From the UHGV virus genome UHGV-0108017: a stretch of DNA of 25,586 bases; one strand, written 5' to 3'. Below the pieces are notes generated by a model. That model ran no database searches. It had not been told where the DNA came from and worked only from the letters and a program-made list of their open reading frames with translations. The DNA comes from a virus. Of the stretch, positions 1 to 8,300 are shown piece after piece (the first letter of the stretch is position 1; every line of letters starts with the position of its first letter). The translations under genes and the position numbers were made by a program.

Positions 1-54
1 CATATTGGTCATAGCGCTATCCTTCACGGCTGCATTATATAAAGAGGTAAATCA

Positions 55-67
55 TTTGATACTGCTG
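55..67 (+). repeat. left-end repeat copy 1 (TTTGATACTGCTG), candidate transposase-binding site L1
   Basis: 13-bp motif recurs at 159-171 and 201-213 in direct orientation; followed by AAAAATCCGGG, reminiscent of the Mu L1 region as recalled. Confidence 0.5.
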
Positions 68-158
68 AAAAATCCGGGAGGAAAGTGGATCAAACGGGAT
101 TTGATGGGATAAAACAAACAGTTATGACGTAAAACAGTGTTATGCGCACAACATGTGA

Positions 159-171
159 TTTGATACTACTG
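159..171 (+). repeat. left-end repeat copy 2 (TTTGATACTACTG), candidate transposase-binding site L2
   Basis: Exact 13-mer shared with 201-213; 104 bp from copy 1, close to the Mu L1-L2 spacing as recalled. Confidence 0.5.
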
Positions 172-200
172 TCGCAAAGAAAGCTAAAAACGAAAAAATA

Positions 201-213
201 TTTGATACTACTG
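201..213 (+). repeat. left-end repeat copy 3 (TTTGATACTACTG), candidate transposase-binding site L3
   Basis: Exact 13-mer identical to copy 2; 42 bp downstream of it, close to the Mu L2-L3 spacing as recalled. Confidence 0.5.
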
Positions 214-239
214 ATTTCTGCGATTTTAACGTTTTAAAC

Positions 240-281
240 AGGTTAAAAAACCAGCCGCGGGCTATTGGAATTAGCCCGCCT
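240..281 (-). terminator. putative rho-independent terminator of the repressor transcript
   Basis: 8-bp stem GCGGGCTA (257-264) / TAGCCCGC (272-279) with 7-nt loop; on the minus-strand RNA the hairpin is followed by a UUUUUU run (plus-strand A-run 245-250). Stem overlaps the stop codon at 271-273. Confidence 0.45.
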
Positions 282-855
282 TCGATTCTAAACTACTTGA
301 GAGTTTATCGCTTTCAATTTCTGCCAAAATCTCTCTAACTCTTTCATCCGATAAATGATCTAAAAGTAGAGCTGCTGCACGTTTTCGTCCTTCAAGTTGG
401 ATTAGTTCTTGATTCTCTGGTTCAAGTAACCGTGACAAGTACTTAGCTCCATTTAGCGCGAGGATTTTTGATAATCGCTCTGCCTCTGATGCTTCTAAAG
501 CACTTAGTATAGCAAGAAGGCGCTGTAGCGTTATATCTAGGGGCAATTGGACGTTTTCATCTATTTTAGGTGATATTGGTTCTATATCCTCCTTGCCAAA
601 AACAAGCCAATCAATGCTCACCCCTTCTGCAAAAGCAATCTGACCAGCTACTTGTAGAGATGGTGTCGCATCTTTCTCAAAGTAGTTGTTAAGTGTTGAG
701 AACGGTAGCCCCCACGCCTTCGCCACGGCAGTCTTGGAGCGCCCGCGCATTAACATGGCTAGGCGCTCTTTAATGCTTTCTTTTTGAAACACAGGAAAAG
801 AAAAATCACTTTCTTTTTCAGTGCTTCTTTCTTTTCTGTTAACTATATGATTCAT
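271..855 (-). CDS. prophage repressor (Mu c-like by position), HTH DNA-binding protein
   Basis: Only leftward gene, divergent from ner at the left end. Start taken at ATG 853-855 (MNHIVNRKER...); the ORF-track start at 906 is a GTG. HTH-like segment SKTAVAKAWGLPFSTLNNYF. GC much lower than the rest of the window. Confidence 0.6.
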   Translation of the reverse strand: MNHIVNRKERSTEKESDFSFPVFQKESIKERLAMLMRGRSKTAVAKAWGLPFSTLNNYFEKDATPSLQVAGQIAFAEGVSIDWLVFGKEDIEPISPKIDENVQLPLDITLQRLLAILSALEASEAERLSKILALNGAKYLSRLLEPENQELIQLEGRKRAAALLLDHLSDERVREILAEIESDKLSSSLESKAG

Positions 856-995
856 AAAGAAATATCCTTTTGTAGATAAAAACCACCAAAGAAAGAGATA
901 AAACACCTTTACTTTTCTTTTGTAGTGATCAAATATTTATATGTAGAGATTATCCGGCGGTGTTATCCGCGCAGATAACTTTTAAGGATAAACGA
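856..995. promoter_or_regulatory. divergent early promoter / operator region between repressor and ner
   Basis: Repeated TGTAG(A/T)GAT motifs (871-879, 921-929, 942-950), 18-bp near-palindrome GTTATCCGCGCAGATAAC (962-979), IHF-like GATCAAATATTTA (927-939). Confidence 0.55.
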
Positions 996-1232
996 ATGAT
1001 GTCTATAAATGAAGTTGTTAAACAGGACTGGCACCCCGCGCATGTTGTCGCGGCGGTGCATGTAAAAGGTTTTACTTTACGCTCTCTGTCCATTGAAGCC
1101 GGTTTAAACCAGGATTCTTTAAAGAATGCCCTGTACCGCAAATGCCCAAAATATGAGCGCATTATTGCTGATGCTATTGGTGTTGCTCCGGAGGAGATCT
1201 GGCCCAGCCGTTACGCTCGTAAGGTGGTATAA
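996..1232 (+). CDS. ner: Ner-like DNA-binding early regulator
   Basis: ATG 996 with AAGGA 8 nt upstream. Recognisable Ner/Nlp signature (DWHPAHVVAA...GFTLRSLS...IIADAIGVAPEEIWPSRY). Stop overlaps the RBS of A. Confidence 0.8.
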   Translation: MMSINEVVKQDWHPAHVVAAVHVKGFTLRSLSIEAGLNQDSLKNALYRKCPKYERIIADAIGVAPEEIWPSRYARKVV

Positions 1233-1234
1233 AA

Positions 1235-3322
1235 ATGTTTGTATCAGTTAATGAGCTTGTAGGGCTACCAGGTATGCCGGGAACTGCGCAAGGGGTGCGG
1301 TATTCCATAAGGAAACTGGCCTCATCTGAGCATTTCAGGCGCAAACGTGCGGGTTCAAAAACCATTGAATACAGCATCGACTGCCTCCCTCCGATTACAC
1401 AACGGGCGTTACGTGAGCGACATGTAGCTCAACTGATGGCAAGCGCCCCGCAGGAGATAACTACCCAGCCTCCTGTAAAGCGTGAACGCAAACAAAATGT
1501 TGTACAGCCTGTTGAGGCATATCGCGGTTCGCCACAATTGGTAGAAGAGCGTCTGAATGCGCTTACGGAAAATCAACGTAAAGTTGCAGAAGCGCGCATT
1601 GCTCTTGTCTGTGAAGTTCTACGAATTAGCCAGGAGCCGGGATTCAGTTGTGCCAGCGCTATACGTTTTATTGTGTCGCGGTTAGCACAGGGTAACCTGG
1701 AAGAACGCCTGGAATCTTTGGTCATTACTGCTAATGCCCGTAAAGGAAAAGAGCGAACTCTGAGCGCAATTACGCTCAAACGTTGGATAGCTGCGTTTAA
1801 CAAAGCACAGAATGCCGCAGAACGACTGCTGTTACTGGCACCAGGAAAGCGCGACGAAATAAAACCGGAAGAAATTAGCTGGCTGCCTGAATTTCTGGCG
1901 CAGTATCGTCAGGCTAACGGCAGGCCTATGTCTGAAGCCTATGAGGATTTTGTCGCTGATTGGCAGCGTCGCCATGCGGACGAACCATACATGCTGGAGG
2001 TGATGCCTTCCTATGATGTTGTCCGGTATGCCATGAAAAAACTGCCGGAAGTGGTGAAACAAAAAGGGCGCGTTACCGGCAGTGAATACCGTCAGCTTGA
2101 AGGATTCACCCGCCGCGACTGGACAGCTATGCCGGTGAATTATGTCTGGATTGGTGACGGTCACGGTATGAAGCTGAAATGTGCGCATCCGGTTCACGGG
2201 CGTCCATTTTCACCGGAAGTTACGTTTGTGATCGACGGTGGAACCCGGTTTGTGGTTGGCTGGAGTCTTGATCTTGCGGAGAACGTGTTCGCTGTTGCCG
2301 GGGCGATACAACACGGCATTCGCAATCATGGAAAACCATTCCTGTATTACTCGGATAATGGTTCCGGTGAAACGGCAGATATGCTGGATAAAGAGATCGT
2401 CGGGATTCTGCCCCGTCTGGGGATTAACCACCCCACCGGTATTGCGGGAAATCCGCAGGGACGCGGCATTATTGAACGCCTGAACCGAACATTACCGATG
2501 CGTATAGCCAGGAGGTATCGCACCTATTTCGGCAAGGGTGCTGACCGGGAATCGTTGCGAGTACTTAATCGTGATCTGCGTTCAGCGTTTAATGCCCTGC
2601 AACAGGACAAGCCACTGAGCGCCCGTCAGAAAGCCGCAATGCGCGAGCTGCCGTCCTGGTCAGAACTGATTGAGGCTATCCGTGAGGGGGTGGAGTGGTA
2701 CAACAACCGCCCACATTCTGAATTGCCGATGAAACCAAACGGAAAGCATTACAGCCCGGCAGAGTTCAGAAAAAAACGCTTAGCGGAAGAAGACACTGAA
2801 ATTGAGTGGCTGAGTGATCTTGAGCTGCGCGACATGTTCCGCCCGATGGTGGAGCGTCCGGTAAGACGCTGCGAAATCCAGTGGCTGAACAATATTTACT
2901 ACGCGCCAGAGCTGCGTGATGAACATGGTCGCAAAGTACTTATCAGCTATGACATTCACGATGCCGAGCGAATTACGGTACGCCGTAAGGACGGTAGCTT
3001 TATCTGTGAGGCGATATGGAACGGCAATAAACGCGCAGCCTTTCCTGTCACGGCTGAATATCACAAACAACAGCAGCGTATTAAAGGCATGCGCAAGCGT
3101 GCTGAGGAAAAAATTCGTGATGCAGAGGATGAAGGTATTCAGATTCTGGAACACAAACAGGCTGAACCCTGGCTGGATAATGTTTATCGCCCGGTTGGTA
3201 ATACGGTAACCATCCGGCAACAGGATTATGAGGAAGATTACGACGAAGATTATGAACGCGATTTCAGGCTGGGTTTGCAAAAACTTGCAGCCATACAGGA
3301 ACAGGATGATCCGCTGGCCTGA
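1235..3322 (+). CDS. A: DDE transposase (MuA-like)
   Basis: 695 aa immediately after ner. N-terminal winged-helix-like region resembling MuA; candidate catalytic residues D308 (WIGDGH), D375 (YYSDNGSGE), E414 (IIERLNR) by inspection. Confidence 0.85.
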   Translation: MFVSVNELVGLPGMPGTAQGVRYSIRKLASSEHFRRKRAGSKTIEYSIDCLPPITQRALRERHVAQLMASAPQEITTQPPVKRERKQNVVQPVEAYRGSPQLVEERLNALTENQRKVAEARIALVCEVLRISQEPGFSCASAIRFIVSRLAQGNLEERLESLVITANARKGKERTLSAITLKRWIAAFNKAQNAAERLLLLAPGKRDEIKPEEISWLPEFLAQYRQANGRPMSEAYEDFVADWQRRHADEPYMLEVMPSYDVVRYAMKKLPEVVKQKGRVTGSEYRQLEGFTRRDWTAMPVNYVWIGDGHGMKLKCAHPVHGRPFSPEVTFVIDGGTRFVVGWSLDLAENVFAVAGAIQHGIRNHGKPFLYYSDNGSGETADMLDKEIVGILPRLGINHPTGIAGNPQGRGIIERLNRTLPMRIARRYRTYFGKGADRESLRVLNRDLRSAFNALQQDKPLSARQKAAMRELPSWSELIEAIREGVEWYNNRPHSELPMKPNGKHYSPAEFRKKRLAEEDTEIEWLSDLELRDMFRPMVERPVRRCEIQWLNNIYYAPELRDEHGRKVLISYDIHDAERITVRRKDGSFICEAIWNGNKRAAFPVTAEYHKQQQRIKGMRKRAEEKIRDAEDEGIQILEHKQAEPWLDNVYRPVGNTVTIRQQDYEEDYDEDYERDFRLGLQKLAAIQEQDDPLA

Positions 3323-3323
3323 A

Positions 3324-3360
3324 TAAAAAACAGTCCGCGGGAACGGACTGTTAAGTAAAG
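3324..3360 (-). terminator. hairpin between A and B; intrinsic-terminator geometry on the minus strand only
   Basis: Perfect 8-bp stem ACAGTCCG (3330-3337) / CGGACTGT (3344-3351), 6-nt loop; preceded on + by AAAAAA, so the minus-strand RNA has hairpin then U-run. No U-tract on the + strand. Confidence 0.4.
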
Positions 3361-3394
3361 GAAACAAAGCTGATTTGAATAAACGGAGAATAAT

Positions 3395-4327
3395 ATGACC
3401 GATATTAATGATGTTTTCAACACAATTAATGCGCTGATTACTGACGGTGTAAAAACACAAAGCGCTATCGCCAAAGAAGCTGGCGTGTCGGAGGCCACTC
3501 TTTCTGAACTTCGCAAAGGCCGTTACAAAGGCGATACCGAAGGGATGCACAACAAATTACTGATGTGGCATCAGGGCTGGCAGAAAAGTCTGGAGTTGCC
3601 CGGCACCCCACAACTTGTGGAAACACAGACCCTGCGTGATTTGCGTGAACTTTTTCAGACAGTGCGTGTTATGGGGTGTATCAGCGTTCTGGTGGGTGTG
3701 CCGGGGGTAGGAAAAACCGTTGCGGCCCGTGAATACAGTAACCGCGTATCTAATACCTGGATGGTAACCCTTTCCCCTGCACACTCAACGGTGACGGAAT
3801 GTCTGCTGGAACTGGCAGACGCGCTGGGAATTGATAACCCGCAAAGGAATAAAGGCGCGCTGACCCGTGCCATTCGCAAAAAACTGAACGGTACACGCGG
3901 TCTGGTGATTGTGGATGAAGCTGACCACCTGAGCATTGACGGGCTGGAACAATTACGTGCCATTCAGGATGCCACCGGAGTCGGGATGGTATTGATTGGT
4001 AACCCCAGTCAGTTAGCCAAAGCCACACATCGGGGAACGGATGACCTTGCACGTTTGTTCAGTCGTTTCGCCAGGACAAAGCAACTACGTAAAGCCAAAA
4101 AGGCTGACGTGGTGGCAATTGCGAAAGCCTGGGGCATTGAGGGCGAAGATGAATTATCACTCATGCAGAGCATCGCGGAAAAGCCAGGCGCATTGCGTGT
4201 ATTAACTCACACGCTGAATCAGGCGTGGCTGGCAGCCAGCGGGAAAGGCGTTCCTCTGTCCAAAGGCTACATAAAAGCGGCTTTTAAAGAGGTTTACAGC
4301 AACCCGAAATTACTGAACTGGTGGTAA
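3395..4327 (+). CDS. B: transposition ATPase / target DNA activator (MuB-like, AAA+)
   Basis: 310 aa; Walker A GVPGVGKT (K107) and Walker B LVIVDEADHL seen in translation; N-terminal HTH-like region; sits directly after A as in Mu. Confidence 0.85.
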   Translation: MTDINDVFNTINALITDGVKTQSAIAKEAGVSEATLSELRKGRYKGDTEGMHNKLLMWHQGWQKSLELPGTPQLVETQTLRDLRELFQTVRVMGCISVLVGVPGVGKTVAAREYSNRVSNTWMVTLSPAHSTVTECLLELADALGIDNPQRNKGALTRAIRKKLNGTRGLVIVDEADHLSIDGLEQLRAIQDATGVGMVLIGNPSQLAKATHRGTDDLARLFSRFARTKQLRKAKKADVVAIAKAWGIEGEDELSLMQSIAEKPGALRVLTHTLNQAWLAASGKGVPLSKGYIKAAFKEVYSNPKLLNWW

Positions 4328-4341
4328 GGGGATAATAAATA

Positions 4342-4569
4342 ATGATGTCACGAAATATAAAAATGGCAACGGATGCGCAGAACTGGTTACAGGCGCGCGG
4401 GAGTCATGTAAATGAATCATATCTCGGCGTGGCGCGTCCGATTCTTGAAATCACTTACCCACCGGTGGAACTGGTAAAAAACGCGGTCAGAATTATGGAG
4501 CATAAGTCCGGGGTGGCCCGTTCTGTATGGACGGCCCGTTTTAATGGTTGCCAGATAATCTGGAGATAG
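4342..4569 (+). CDS. hypothetical early protein (at the position of kil in Mu)
   Basis: 75-aa ORF with AAGGGG RBS, immediately after B; AT-rich relative to flanking genes. No recognisable motif. Confidence 0.5.
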
Positions 4570-4576
4570 CATTTAA

Positions 4577-4789
4577 ATGATGGTGATAAATATTCACGAT
4601 AATCTGGGAATCAGTAAGTTAATCAACCTTGATAATGTCAGTGTAATGGAAACGACTGTTGAGGGCGGTATTGCTTTTGAATTTATTGATGGTCACCGGC
4701 TGGTCGTTCATGTCGGCAACCATCATCACGCAGAAGATGTGTTTTGGGAACTTAACAAAATCACAAATGCAACACCCGTTAATCAATAA
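4577..4789 (+). CDS. hypothetical early protein
   Basis: 70-aa ORF, tandem ATG start, tightly packed in the early operon; AT-rich; His-rich patch HVGNHHHAED. Confidence 0.45.
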   Translation: MMVINIHDNLGISKLINLDNVSVMETTVEGGIAFEFIDGHRLVVHVGNHHHAEDVFWELNKITNATPVNQ

Positions 4790-4796
4790 GCAGGTA

Positions 4797-5072
4797 ATGA
4801 AAATGGCAAAAGTAATCTTTGAATTTAACAATACAAGAAATATTGAGTTTCAGGATAATGGAGGTTTTGCCGTAAATATGAATGTGCGACTGGAAGAATC
4901 CTCACCTGAGGACCAGACCGGGCCACATGATGTAATGGCAGGCATCATCAAGAGCATGGCTCCTGAAATCATTAAAAAAGCGACCGAGGAGTTGTTGAAA
5001 TCAGCCAGGGAGCTTGGGCTGGAAGCCGAGGGGGAATTATTCAGCTATAACCCGAATGCAGCCAGACATTAA
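4797..5072 (+). CDS. hypothetical early protein
   Basis: Start chosen at ATG 4797 (or 4803) after the stop of the previous gene; the ORF-track entry 4659 overlaps the previous gene. Acidic C-terminal half. Confidence 0.45.
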   Translation: MKMAKVIFEFNNTRNIEFQDNGGFAVNMNVRLEESSPEDQTGPHDVMAGIIKSMAPEIIKKATEELLKSARELGLEAEGELFSYNPNAARH

Positions 5073-5092
5073 TTCACAAAGGAACGCTGACA

Positions 5093-5512
5093 ATGAACGT
5101 CAAAATCCGAAATGAAATTCAGGCATTAATCCGAATTCAGGAACGCAATAACAACGGTGGTGAATTACGCGAGTTTATTTGCGCCCGAAAAGTTGATGAT
5201 TGTGGTGAAAAGACTTACCTGATTGCTTTCGACCATTACAGCATCTGTGCGCGTTATTGCGGCGAAAGCATATCCCGCGCCATTGCATTTGGCGGTGCGT
5301 TCAACGTGGATTTATGGGAGTACGTCATGGACCGGGAATACATCTGCGCATCAGACCCTGAAGCCCGTGAAATGTGGCAGCGTATCTGGCGCGATTACCG
5401 GTTAATGGCAAAAGGCTGGGCGCGCTGCTGTTATTCCTCGCTTGCCCTGAAAGCGGTTCAGTTATCGCTGCGGCATATTCCGGCATCACTGCGCGAGCCT
5501 CTGCTGTACTGA
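5093..5512 (+). CDS. hypothetical cysteine-rich early protein
   Basis: 139 aa, AAAGGA RBS; multiple Cys (CARK, DDCGEK, SICARYCGE, YICASD, ARCC); stop overlaps the next start (TGAATG). Confidence 0.5.
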   Translation: MNVKIRNEIQALIRIQERNNNGGELREFICARKVDDCGEKTYLIAFDHYSICARYCGESISRAIAFGGAFNVDLWEYVMDREYICASDPEAREMWQRIWRDYRLMAKGWARCCYSSLALKAVQLSLRHIPASLREPLLY

Positions 5513-5812
5513 ATGGTGGCTGACATGAAGTGTAATCGTAAGCGCTGGTCACGCGAAGACCGGGAATTTATCGAAGCCAACGTCGGGAAAATGACCGTTG
5601 AAGAAATGGCGGAAAAACTGAAAGTCGCCACAACCGCCCTCCGGGCACATGCCAGAAGGCACGGAATATCATTGTGTGTATACCGAATCAGTGAACACGA
5701 CAAATATTTATGTCGTGAACTTTATAAAGAAGGGCTGGATATTCATGTCATTGCCCGAAAGATGGAATTAAGCAATCGAGCTGTATCCAGCATTGTATAC
5801 AGCGGATATTAA
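5513..5812 (+). CDS. hypothetical early protein with putative HTH-like segment
   Basis: 99 aa (alternative ATG at 5525); segment WSREDREFIEANVGKMTVEEMAEKLKVATTALRAHARRHGIS looks like a small helical DNA-binding fold; translationally coupled to the upstream gene. Confidence 0.45.
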   Translation: MVADMKCNRKRWSREDREFIEANVGKMTVEEMAEKLKVATTALRAHARRHGISLCVYRISEHDKYLCRELYKEGLDIHVIARKMELSNRAVSSIVYSGY

Positions 5813-5831
5813 TTAACAGGAGCTTTAATTT

Positions 5832-6356
5832 ATGGCTAAACCAGCAAAACGCATCAAAAGTGCCGCAGCGGCTTATGTGCCACAAAACCGCGATGCGGTG
5901 ATTACCGATATTAAACGCATCGGGGATTTACAGCGCGAAGCATCACGTCTGGAAACGGAAATGAATGATGCCATCGCGGAAATTACGGAGAAATTTGCAG
6001 CCCGGATTGCACCGATTAAAACCGATATTGAAACCCTTTCAAAAGGCGTTCAGGGATGGTGTGAAGCGAACCGCGACGAACTGACGAACGGCGGCAAAGT
6101 GAAGACGGCGAATCTTGTCACCGGTGATGTATCGTGGCGGGTCCGTCCACCATCAGTAAGTATTCGTGGTATGGATGCAGTGATGGAAACGCTGGAGCGT
6201 CTTGGCCTGCAACGCTTTATTCGCACGAAGCAGGAAATCAACAAGGAGGCGATTTTACTGGAGCCAAAAGCGGTCGCAGGTGTTGCCGGAATTACGGTTA
6301 AATCGGGAATTGAAGATTTTTCCATTATTCCGTTTGAACAGGAAGCCGGTATTTAA
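5832..6356 (+). CDS. gam: Gam, host-nuclease inhibitor (Ku-like DNA end-binding protein)
   Basis: 174 aa; translation (MAKPAKRIKSAAAAYVPQNRDAVITDIKRIG...) matches Mu Gam as I recall it, essentially end to end; AGGAG RBS 9 nt upstream. Confidence 0.85.
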   Translation: MAKPAKRIKSAAAAYVPQNRDAVITDIKRIGDLQREASRLETEMNDAIAEITEKFAARIAPIKTDIETLSKGVQGWCEANRDELTNGGKVKTANLVTGDVSWRVRPPSVSIRGMDAVMETLERLGLQRFIRTKQEINKEAILLEPKAVAGVAGITVKSGIEDFSIIPFEQEAGI

Positions 6357-6398
6357 TACCACCATTAATATTTAATTAATTCACATTCTTTTAATTAT

Positions 6399-6428
6399 GG
6401 CGCGATGCGTCAGGGGATTGCTCGCGCC
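6399..6428 (+). other. GC-rich stem-loop in an AT-rich intergenic region (no U-tract)
   Basis: 7-bp stem GGCGCGA (6399-6405) / TCGCGCC (6422-6428), 16-nt loop, within the 98-bp gap between gam and the next ORF; TTAATTAA palindrome just upstream. Confidence 0.3.
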
Positions 6429-6454
6429 TGAAACATATTACAGAGGAATAAAAC

Positions 6455-6994
6455 ATGGTTGATGCAAAAATTCTGAATGGTGTCAGCACATTATTACGGG
6501 CTTACGGACGCCTGACCTGTGGAGTTCTGGCTGAAAAAATGAATATGCTGCCCTCGTCAATGGTGTATTTCCTGCGTGATGCGGTTGATGCCGGAGTGCT
6601 CACCGAATGCAACGGATTTTATGACGTACCGCGTCCCCGTACAGAGCAGCCTGTAAGACGAAACGCAACTGAGCAGCCTGCTGTTGATGATGCGGTGTGG
6701 TGCAACTGGCGTCGCTCATTACCCTGGGTGGAAGGTAATACCATCCCTGCGCTGGCAAAAGAGTTTGCGACGGGCGTGCTGACCTGTGAGTCAGTCCACA
6801 TTGTTGCTGAGGTGGATAACAGAATGTGCGAACAGGGAATGCCCCGTTTTGTGATGGCTTATATCGATATCCGGCTGGGGCGTTTTATTTGCAGTTCAAG
6901 CGCCTGGAATATCACCGACCATGTACTGCGTTATCTCATCATTGATTTTTCATCAGCACCGGGTGTGGTGCAGGAGGCTGGTTGTGAAATTTGA
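6455..6994 (+). CDS. hypothetical early protein, possible winged-helix N-terminus
   Basis: 179 aa; AGAGGA RBS 7 nt upstream; N-terminal LLRAYGRLTCGVLAEKMNMLPSSMVYFLRDAVDAGVLTE is wHTH-like by eye. Confidence 0.5.
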   Translation: MVDAKILNGVSTLLRAYGRLTCGVLAEKMNMLPSSMVYFLRDAVDAGVLTECNGFYDVPRPRTEQPVRRNATEQPAVDDAVWCNWRRSLPWVEGNTIPALAKEFATGVLTCESVHIVAEVDNRMCEQGMPRFVMAYIDIRLGRFICSSSAWNITDHVLRYLIIDFSSAPGVVQEAGCEI

Positions 6995-7688
6995 AGACTG
7001 GGGTATTGATAAAAGTTGTGGCCGGGACGTCCTGGTGTACAAAAGCTGTAGCGTGATTGAAGGAGAAGATGCCTGGCAGGTTCTGGATATACTTCGTTCT
7101 GCTTTATGCAGAGCTGGCTATGTTACGCCAGCGTCAGTTAATGGCGGAACTGCCACTACCTGTATCAGAAAGCAACTTTATAGTTTTTATACAGCCTACA
7201 ACCGATGGTTAAAGAATGGGGCAATGGAGACGGGCGATGATGTATTTACCCGGGCTGCCGGATTATGTGCCAATGCTTACGATTATTTTGAATCAACCGG
7301 TGCAGACAGTGAAGCCGCATTAGAACAATTACATGCGGACTTTATCTCAGCAGGGCTGAATGAGAAATTGCCATTTAACCGGGACAGCAAACATTACAGA
7401 AACGAAAGCAAATTGGCCAGATGCCACCAGAATTCAGCACGTGTGGCATGGGTTGAAAAACACTGTATTAGTTCTGATTCAGAAATAACGGGGAAAAAGA
7501 CAGTCGGTGAAACATCGTATTCGTGGCTGGGGAAATTTACCACGGTGAAACAGGAATGCCCGACCTGCGGTAATGAATCCCCTGAATATCTGAAAGAGTG
7601 TCCCCATTGTGGCGGGCAGAAATGCAACCACTGTGATATGGGCGATGACACGGCGTGCATGAATTGTGAAGGTGAACAGAATGAATAA
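6984..7688 (+). CDS. hypothetical protein with C-terminal 4x CxxC zinc-ribbon cluster
   Basis: Start proposed at GTG 6984, 6 nt after AGGAGG (6972-6977); the ORF track extends to 6921 inside the upstream gene. C-terminus CPTCGN...CPHCGGQKCNHCD...CMNCEGE. Confidence 0.5.
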   Translation: MKFEDWGIDKSCGRDVLVYKSCSVIEGEDAWQVLDILRSALCRAGYVTPASVNGGTATTCIRKQLYSFYTAYNRWLKNGAMETGDDVFTRAAGLCANAYDYFESTGADSEAALEQLHADFISAGLNEKLPFNRDSKHYRNESKLARCHQNSARVAWVEKHCISSDSEITGKKTVGETSYSWLGKFTTVKQECPTCGNESPEYLKECPHCGGQKCNHCDMGDDTACMNCEGEQNE

Positions 7689-7989
7689 TGGCGTATTTAC
7701 AAAATCCGAGGAACTGACAGCGTTGTTGACGGCGGCTGGTTTTCCTGAAGATGTGATCGGTAACTTTGTGGCGGCGGTATATGCCCCGTCTTATAACCGT
7801 GCAATTGATGAGGTCATGGCGTACCGACTCGGCATTGTTGCTGAGTCACTGAGTCCTCACTGGATTATTGAAAATCTCCGCGCTATTGCTGATGGCAACG
7901 ATAAATCAGCAGCCGTTGCTGCACTGGATGTGTTACGGCAAATGAGTCTGAAATTTTATCCTGAATTTATTCTGAGGGCCGCAAAATGA
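7681..7989 (+). CDS. hypothetical early protein
   Basis: ATG 7681 overlaps the upstream stop; the ORF-track start 7666 is a GTG. 102 aa, no recognisable motif. Confidence 0.45.
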   Translation: MNNGVFTKSEELTALLTAAGFPEDVIGNFVAAVYAPSYNRAIDEVMAYRLGIVAESLSPHWIIENLRAIADGNDKSAAVAALDVLRQMSLKFYPEFILRAAK

Positions 7990-8288
7990 ACAATGAAGAT
8001 AAATTTACTCCCCTTAATATTGATAACGTCATGGCTGAAAAAAGGATGCTGGAACGTGTTCGCGCTATCGTTGAATATGGTATTAAGCATGAACTCACCG
8101 CCAGAGAAGTTCGTGACATTATCAACCGCGAAATGAATCGTCTGGAAACATTAGTGGCACTGCAAAATGAAACAGCCCGCGAGGAGTACATCCGCCGCAG
8201 GCTGGGGTTATCAGACCAGGATATTGTTACTGACGCTCATGTGTTTGAGGCTTTTGAGATCCGTCAGCATCTGGGCCTTACGAACTGA
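7986..8288 (+). CDS. hypothetical early protein (predicted helical / coiled-coil)
   Basis: 100 aa, ATGA overlap with the upstream gene; charged helical composition. Confidence 0.45.
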   Translation: MNNEDKFTPLNIDNVMAEKRMLERVRAIVEYGIKHELTAREVRDIINREMNRLETLVALQNETAREEYIRRRLGLSDQDIVTDAHVFEAFEIRQHLGLTN

Positions 8289-8300
8289 TGTGTAAATTCA

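Follow-up and report, generated by a model that had tools for sequence, protein, structure and literature searches.

Three small genes lie directly downstream of B in the viral genome UHGV-0108017. They probably represent early genes of the Mu semi-essential (SE) region, namely kil, an optional slot filled here by a swappable cassette (ORF2), and a slot-7 allele of the D108 type (ORF3) whose role would resemble that of Gnarl2 of Mu. Much of the region is ordinary, as Kil is a known protein and ORF3 is an allele already sequenced in D108. Recognizing the "unknown" first ORF as the classic kil removes a false lead, and the finding that the Mu counterpart of ORF3 is Gnarl2 adds to the interest of ORF3 (PMC12373910). 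The accessory region of Mu can now be described as one optional slot (gp6, ORF2 or empty) and one obligatory slot whose three alleles have diverged. The features discussed below are listed in Table 1.

Table 1. Features of the three-gene region, in window coordinates
Feature	Position	Strand	Description
ORF1, kil (Mu gp5)	4342..4569	+	75 aa, pI 10.2
Left slot-6 junction	4567..4576	+	kil stop codon and the spacer after it; ORF2-type, gp6-type and empty loci align up to the kil stop, then diverge
ORF2, alternative slot-6 cassette	4577..4789	+	70 aa, acidic, pI 5.25
Right slot-6 junction, AATCAATAAG	4781..4790	+	last two codons (Asn-Gln), stop and one further base; decamer common to ORF2 and gp6 cassettes
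ORF3, D108-type (class A) slot-7 allele	4803..5072	+	89 aa, acidic, pI 4.8
G5 tract inside ORF3	5030..5034	+	G6 (+1 frameshift) in three related prophages

The three genes adjoin a module boundary in a mosaic Muvirus

The window, by which we mean the whole stretch of 25,586 nucleotides that was analysed, spans the left end of a Muvirus and a large part of the late region. Starting at position 4330, its nucleotide sequence is 96-98% identical to Mu, D108, SfMu and related phages. The first 4.3 kb (window 1-4329), which carry c, ner, A and B, gave no similarity to Mu or D108 by blastn. The B protein is 44% identical to B of Mu and 97-98% identical to B of four IMG/VR loci (L004, L006, L044 and L052). 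The junction between the two modules is the 2 nt that separate the B stop (4327) from the start of Mu homology (4330), and the three-ORF region adjoins the right side of this c-ner-A-B boundary. Similarity to the Yersinia phages vB_YpM_5 and vB_YpM_6 extends over 89% of the window.

Mu-like prophages with the region 3395-5900 were found in 92 of 5426 complete E. coli genomes. The B type of the window, ORF2 and a class A slot 7 did not occur together as one near-identical stretch in any of the 5426, which makes the window a mosaic of its own. Three E. coli records cover at least 80% of 3395-5900, each in two pieces that are 87-94% identical.

Variation was also seen farther to the right. The gp12 of Mu and D108 is replaced between 6978 and 7507 of the window. 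An ORF at 6921-7688 matches phrog_6418 (231 aa) from its residue 22, and over the last 56 residues, at the C-terminus, it resembles the Mu gp13 family (phrog_5584). The ORF has the look of an alternative gp12 to which a Cys-rich, gp13-like tail has been joined. An extra ORF of 107 aa at 7666-7989 belongs to phrog_1988. The segment around it (7691-7982) is missing in Mu, and D108 has no similarity across 7691-8300. The stretch 7666-7989 is a further variable slot of the SE region.

Gene layout, base composition and transcription

The initial annotation reported three small ORFs of 75, 70 and 91 aa immediately after B, and all three are present. The third runs from 4797 to 5072 as the longest frame (91 aa), and its conserved start is the ATG at 4803, which gives 89 aa; every allele opens with MAKVI from this codon. 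The in-frame ATG at 4797 is lineage-specific and reads ATA in a close relative. The region is tightly packed, with spacers of 7, 13 and 20 nt. The ORF2 and ORF3 products each carry a charge of about -6 at pH 7.

All three ORFs had been called markedly more AT-rich than the flanking B and gam genes. That description fits ORF2 (39.0% GC, in the lowest 2.4% of windows of the same size) and ORF3 (44.1%), but not ORF1, which at 49.1% does not differ from B (51.2%) or gam (49.3%). Taken together, the 731 nt of the region have a GC content of 43.8%, at the 5th percentile of same-size windows, compared to 52.4% for the whole window. The slot-6 and slot-7 alleles of Mu, D108 and their relatives all fall between 37 and 47% GC, so that low GC is a genus-wide property of these two slots.

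A scan of positions 3300-6500 found no promoter-like or terminator-like sites on the + strand. This fits the single long transcript that runs in Mu from Pe through ner into the SE region; Pe gives one long early transcript across the SE region and is expressed at a low level in lysogens (PMC3820752). The earlier placement of these ORFs in the semi-essential early region of Mu was borne out, as they are the first three genes of this accessory region. By analogy with Mu, they would be carried on a Pe-driven ner-A-B...C transcript, made early in infection and at a low level in lysogens. No Rfam matches were found anywhere in the window. Two antisense ORFs, 4417-4572(-) and 4619-4831(-), had no promoter-like site upstream in the scan. 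The second (70 codons) overlaps ORF2 and is open for 62-73 codons in all of the ORF2-type alleles examined. Both were treated as shadows of the + strand genes.

ORF1 encodes Kil

ORF1 is Kil, a conserved basic protein. Its DNA is 97% identical to kil of Mu, D108 and SfMu, 73 of the 75 residues are identical to Kil of Mu and D108, and the product matches phrog_2743 over positions 1-75 of 75 (E 4e-43). PF26843 (Kil_protein) is assigned to the equivalent genes of related loci. The initial annotation had placed the three ORFs at the kil position, and the first of them turned out to be kil itself; its statement that none of the three carries a recognizable motif was wrong for this ORF. Mu, D108 and all 50 IMG/VR loci share the B-kil order (B stop at 4327, kil start at 4342), and kil was found in 50 of 50 of these loci, which were retrieved with kil as the query. 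In the Mu annotation kil starts at the second ATG, equivalent to window position 4345. The dN/dS of 0.08-0.12 indicates strong purifying selection. The kil gene does not fit the suggestion that the low-GC genes are separately acquired cargo, as it is in every related locus and has normal GC and a dN/dS of about 0.1.

Expression of Mu kil was reported to kill the host without phage replication and to produce spherical cells (Waggoner 1989, as cited in PMC3961180), and deletion of the SE region restores the viability of infected cells (PMC3325207). Spherical cells point to a block in elongation, contrary to the label "Kil protein for bacterial septation inhibition" that RefSeq and PHROGs attach to Mu Kil. 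The same source describes Mu Kil as having no similarity to Kil of lambda or Rac (PMC3961180), and the label looks as if it was carried over from unrelated proteins that are also named Kil. The Kil of the window would disrupt the maintenance of cell shape. One 68-aa member of the 90% cluster of Kil bears the source name "Protein cim".

An optional slot and an obligatory slot follow kil

We surveyed the two positions after kil in 50 Kil-anchored IMG/VR loci. Slot 6, between kil and gp7, holds a gp6-type gene in 27 loci and an ORF2-type gene in 5, and is empty in the remaining 18. The number of empty loci implies that nothing essential resides there. The occupant in Mu and D108 is gp6 (E5, Mup06; phrog_3786), a Cys-rich, zinc-ribbon-like protein of 73-76 aa. 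Relatives with an empty slot have a 35-nt spacer in place of the cassette. Slot 7 was filled in each of the 49 loci that could be read, the contig of the remaining one breaking off there. Its occupants fall into class A (the ORF3/D108 type, 89 aa; 20 loci), class B (Mu gp7/Gnarl2, 87 aa; 19 loci) and class C (89 aa; 10 loci), the last being about 40% identical to class A and clearly homologous to it (E 1e-23).

ORF2 and gp6 are not alleles of one gene by any comparison that we made. BLASTP of ORF2 against gp6 of Mu and D108 gave no alignment at E <= 100, and ORF2 did not fall in phrog_3786; its PHROG match is phrog_3375 (E 5.3e-33, residues 1-69 on positions 1-73 of 73). Nucleotide similarity to Mu and D108 is regained from 4781, at the right junction (Table 1). 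ORF2 was found with class A and with class B and in combination with several types of B and kil, which shows that it assorts as an independent module. The idea of separately acquired cargo thus applies well to ORF2, which replaces an unrelated gp6 between two conserved junctions, and more loosely to ORF3, whose slot harbors three diverged classes of alleles. The alleles of slot 7 all open with AAAATGGCAAA(A/G)GT, after AATCAATAAG (window 4781-4802). Judged from their sequence, the two boundaries, AATCAATAAG and AAAATGGCAAA(A/G)GT, look like recombination joints for the exchange of modules.

ORF2 is very probably a coding gene of a family that was never annotated

An open frame in an AT-rich stretch might be fortuitous, and we considered whether ORF2 is a non-functional frame in filler DNA between kil and gp7. 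The substitution pattern leaves room for this reading. Based on 28 differences only, dN/dS was 0.44 in frame and 0.29-1.1 in the other five frames, and the differences fell 10, 7 and 11 at the three codon positions. The ratio does not discriminate between frames, and dN/dS was dropped as proof of coding. The filler reading is also favored by the 18 of 50 loci with an empty slot, by the lack of homologues outside a narrow family and by the antisense frame, which is likewise open in ORF2 alleles. Against it, the chance of a 70-codon open frame, estimated from base composition, is about 0.6% per frame, and ORF2 alleles with as little as 77% identity all keep an intact frame of exactly 70 codons with no indels. 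The ORF2 start, preceded by a GGAG, lies 7 nt past the kil stop, 13 nt separate the end of ORF2 from ORF3, and the gene is kept on more than 1000 contigs. AlphaFold2 (AF2) moreover gave a compact fold of five beta strands and a C-terminal helix (pLDDT 75) from an alignment of five near-identical sequences. Filler DNA is thus a very unlikely explanation. We regard ORF2 as a real coding gene because its frame is intact, because it fits the gap between kil and ORF3 exactly and because a confident AF2 fold was obtained on a shallow alignment.

The ORF2 family is narrow in range and common within it. It forms 7 clusters among 5.8 billion proteins, and an exhaustive HMMER search of 1.84 billion cluster representatives yielded no homologue outside the family that we could accept. 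The one match outside the family was P0044 (1363 aa, E 9.5e-4, five matched stretches), which we attribute to chance because tandem repeats of a long protein sum to a marginal score. Neither Pcc2 (PDB, E 0.24) nor FosA (NCBIfam, E 0.086) reached significance as a relative. A tblastn search of 50,697 phage records gave no match to ORF2. ORF2 is present in 10 of 5426 complete E. coli genomes, its exact sequence occurs in 82 blocks of the sequence collection, and its 90% cluster comprises more than 1000 contigs of E. coli and Salmonella, on which the product is always called "hypothetical protein". The family is confined to enterobacterial Mu-like prophages; it is catalogued (phrog_3375), yet has never been annotated.

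Profile and structure searches had been suggested as the way to place the three ORFs. The profile searches did so, assigning ORF1, ORF2 and ORF3 to phrog_2743, phrog_3375 and phrog_2230, respectively. Foldseek, with the model of ORF2 as the query, returned nothing at E <= 0.001 from viral and PDB libraries.

ORF3 and the three classes of slot-7 alleles

ORF3 is 98% identical to gp7 of D108 (YP_003335755.1, 89 aa) and matches phrog_2230 with an E value of 1.9e-39. Its dN/dS of 0.12-0.42 indicates purifying but relaxed selection. The AF2 model was poor (pLDDT 53.7). A match to RraB (PF06877) at 16.5 bits (E 0.012) lies below the Pfam gathering score of 23.3 and was rejected.

The relation of ORF3 to Mu gp7 decides how far the work on Mu can be carried over. 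In global mode, hhalign aligned the two with an E value of 1.9e-4 and 23% identity. In local mode the alignment was limited to the first 13 residues, with a probability of 35%. No intermediates between ORF3 and Mu gp7 turned up when 5.8 billion proteins were searched with a mixed profile, and the classes remain three discrete groups. Together, the local match of 13 residues and the lack of intermediates raise the question of whether the N-terminus marks a recombination junction and not shared ancestry. If so, ORF3 would share only its 5' end with Mu gp7 and would otherwise be an unrelated cassette with another function, and the analogy with Gnarl2 would fail. In keeping with such a junction, significance was nearly lost once the first 10 residues were removed (HMM scores then beat shuffled decoys at p of about 0.01-0.07), and unrelated cassettes do swap at conserved junctions in the adjoining slot 6. 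Other comparisons favor a likeness past the N-terminus. Classes A, B and C align with only two one-residue gaps, are all 87-89 aa long and all end in His. Mu gp7 matches phrog_2230, the family of ORF3, with an E value of 0.009, and residues 1-78, or about 90% of its length, take part in the match. Hydropathy profiles of classes A and B correlate over columns 11-89 with r = 0.53, a value that none of 78 circular shifts and none of 5000 permutations reached. Finally, the slot is filled in all 49 readable loci, which fits one gene with diverging alleles. From these sequence comparisons, ORF3 and Mu gp7 probably share a common ancestor, and a match restricted to the 5' end seems rather unlikely.

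All six prophages with the exact ORF2 sequence that were examined (L058-L063; locus positions 6227-6500) carry a frameshift in ORF3. Three of them (L058, L060 and L063) have G6 at the equivalent of 5030-5034 and a truncated product of 82 aa. In the other three (L059, L061 and L062) AGGGAG has become AGGGGGG about 20 nt upstream (about 5007-5012), giving a product of 75 aa. These are two independent homopolymer events. The frameshifts could reflect an inactivation in lysogens that resembles phase variation, or they could be assembly errors.

Proposed roles of ORF2 and ORF3

The initial annotation proposed functions in host takeover or anti-defence. For ORF3 the first of these gains indirect support from its Mu counterpart, gp7/E6 (NP_050611.1), which was named gnarl2 by Silas et al. 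(Nat Commun 2025; PMC12373910) and alters O-antigen. In that work, heterologous expression of Gnarl2 shifted O-antigen bands down and, in certain wild strains of E. coli, raised infection by T5 10^5-10^6-fold (PMC12373910). ORF3 may do the same kind of job, a modification of the envelope or of LPS. Gnarl2 removes an O-antigen barrier in a strain-specific manner, and slot 7, wherever it could be read, is filled by an allele from one of three same-sized classes. The benefit to a resident or replicating phage might be the exclusion of superinfecting phages, or progeny might be kept from re-adsorbing to cell debris. The host-strain specificity of ORF3 may differ from that of Gnarl2. LPS is the receptor of Mu, and the O-antigen question at slot 7 therefore bears directly on the biology of Mu. 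If ORF3 and class C also act on LPS, in different strains, the three classes would constitute a natural panel for enzyme-free O-antigen change by a protein of about 90 aa.

ORF2 would be a dispensable, cytoplasmic accessory protein. It may bind a host or defence protein rather than act as a catalyst.

We also considered whether ORF2, ORF3 or both inhibit an intracellular defence (restriction-modification, abortive infection or a nuclease) rather than modify the envelope or act as general takeover factors. Both proteins are small, acidic and fast-evolving and are encoded in variable slots, a typical signature of anti-defence accessory genes; the neighboring gam encodes a nuclease inhibitor, and Gnarl2 itself emerged from a counter-defence screen (PMC12373910). 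The effect of Gnarl2, however, did not correlate with any defence system in that screen and is reproduced by disruption of O-antigen or capsule genes (PMC12373910). Neither ORF2 nor ORF3 had a match above cut-off among the PADLOC, Pfam and NCBIfam models. With the PADLOC defence-system models in particular, ORF2 and ORF3 gave no match and ORF1 reached only E 0.047, so that the proposed anti-defence role found no support from these models for any of the three ORFs. We consider inhibition of an intracellular defence unlikely.

A more elaborate joint reading would make ORF2 a new, minimal PH-like effector with a His cluster that binds and neutralizes a host or defence factor and is interchangeable with gp6, and would at the same time make the slot-7 classes specificity variants for LPS or O-antigen. 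Slot 7 would then be an enzyme-free seroconversion module under diversifying selection, which G-tract frameshifts switch off in some lysogens. This combination strikes us as improbable. The reading that we favor remains that of Kil, a swappable slot-6 cassette and a slot-7 allele with a role like that of Gnarl2.

Comparison with known systems

ORF1 differs from Mu Kil (gp5, Mup05) by two substitutions only, A3S and L67F; the two proteins are equal in length and their genes have the same position directly after B. The D108 counterpart of ORF3, gp7, occupies the same position, differs in nothing material and is annotated only as a hypothetical protein.

The likeness of ORF2 to gp6 is one of place rather than of sequence. 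Both lie between kil and gp7, within the same junctions, are similar in size and are uncharacterized. The paired Cys motifs of gp6 (CPGC...CCPWC) have no equivalent in ORF2, which has no Cys in the window and one in its relatives, so that a CxxC motif is lacking; a His cluster, HVGNHHHAE (residues 45-53), is found in ORF2 where gp6 is Cys-rich. The ORF2 model is a beta-sandwich with a helix, in contrast to the zinc ribbon of gp6, and GC content is 39% for ORF2 compared to 45% for gp6. In outline, the predicted fold of ORF2 resembles a small beta-sandwich of the PH-like type followed by a helix at the C-terminus. Proteins of the PH-like superfold (PH, PTB, FERM-F3, FACT and TFIIH p62) have seven strands compared to five in the model, and their sequence identity to ORF2 is 2-17%. 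The likeness, as far as the model goes, would be one of topology only and is not evidence of homology or function.

ORF3 and Gnarl2 are about 23% identical, their homology past the N-terminus is probable but falls short of statistical certainty, and ORF3 has a motif, SPxxxTGPHD, that is absent from Gnarl2. Otherwise the two have much in common. They occupy the same slot between slot 6 and gp8, have 89 and 87 aa, share the first eight residues, MAKVI(F/I)E(F/I), and the C-terminal His, and are both small and acidic; their size makes an enzymatic function improbable for either. By this analogy we propose, tentatively, that ORF3 could be functionally equivalent to Gnarl2 in its effect on the envelope or LPS.
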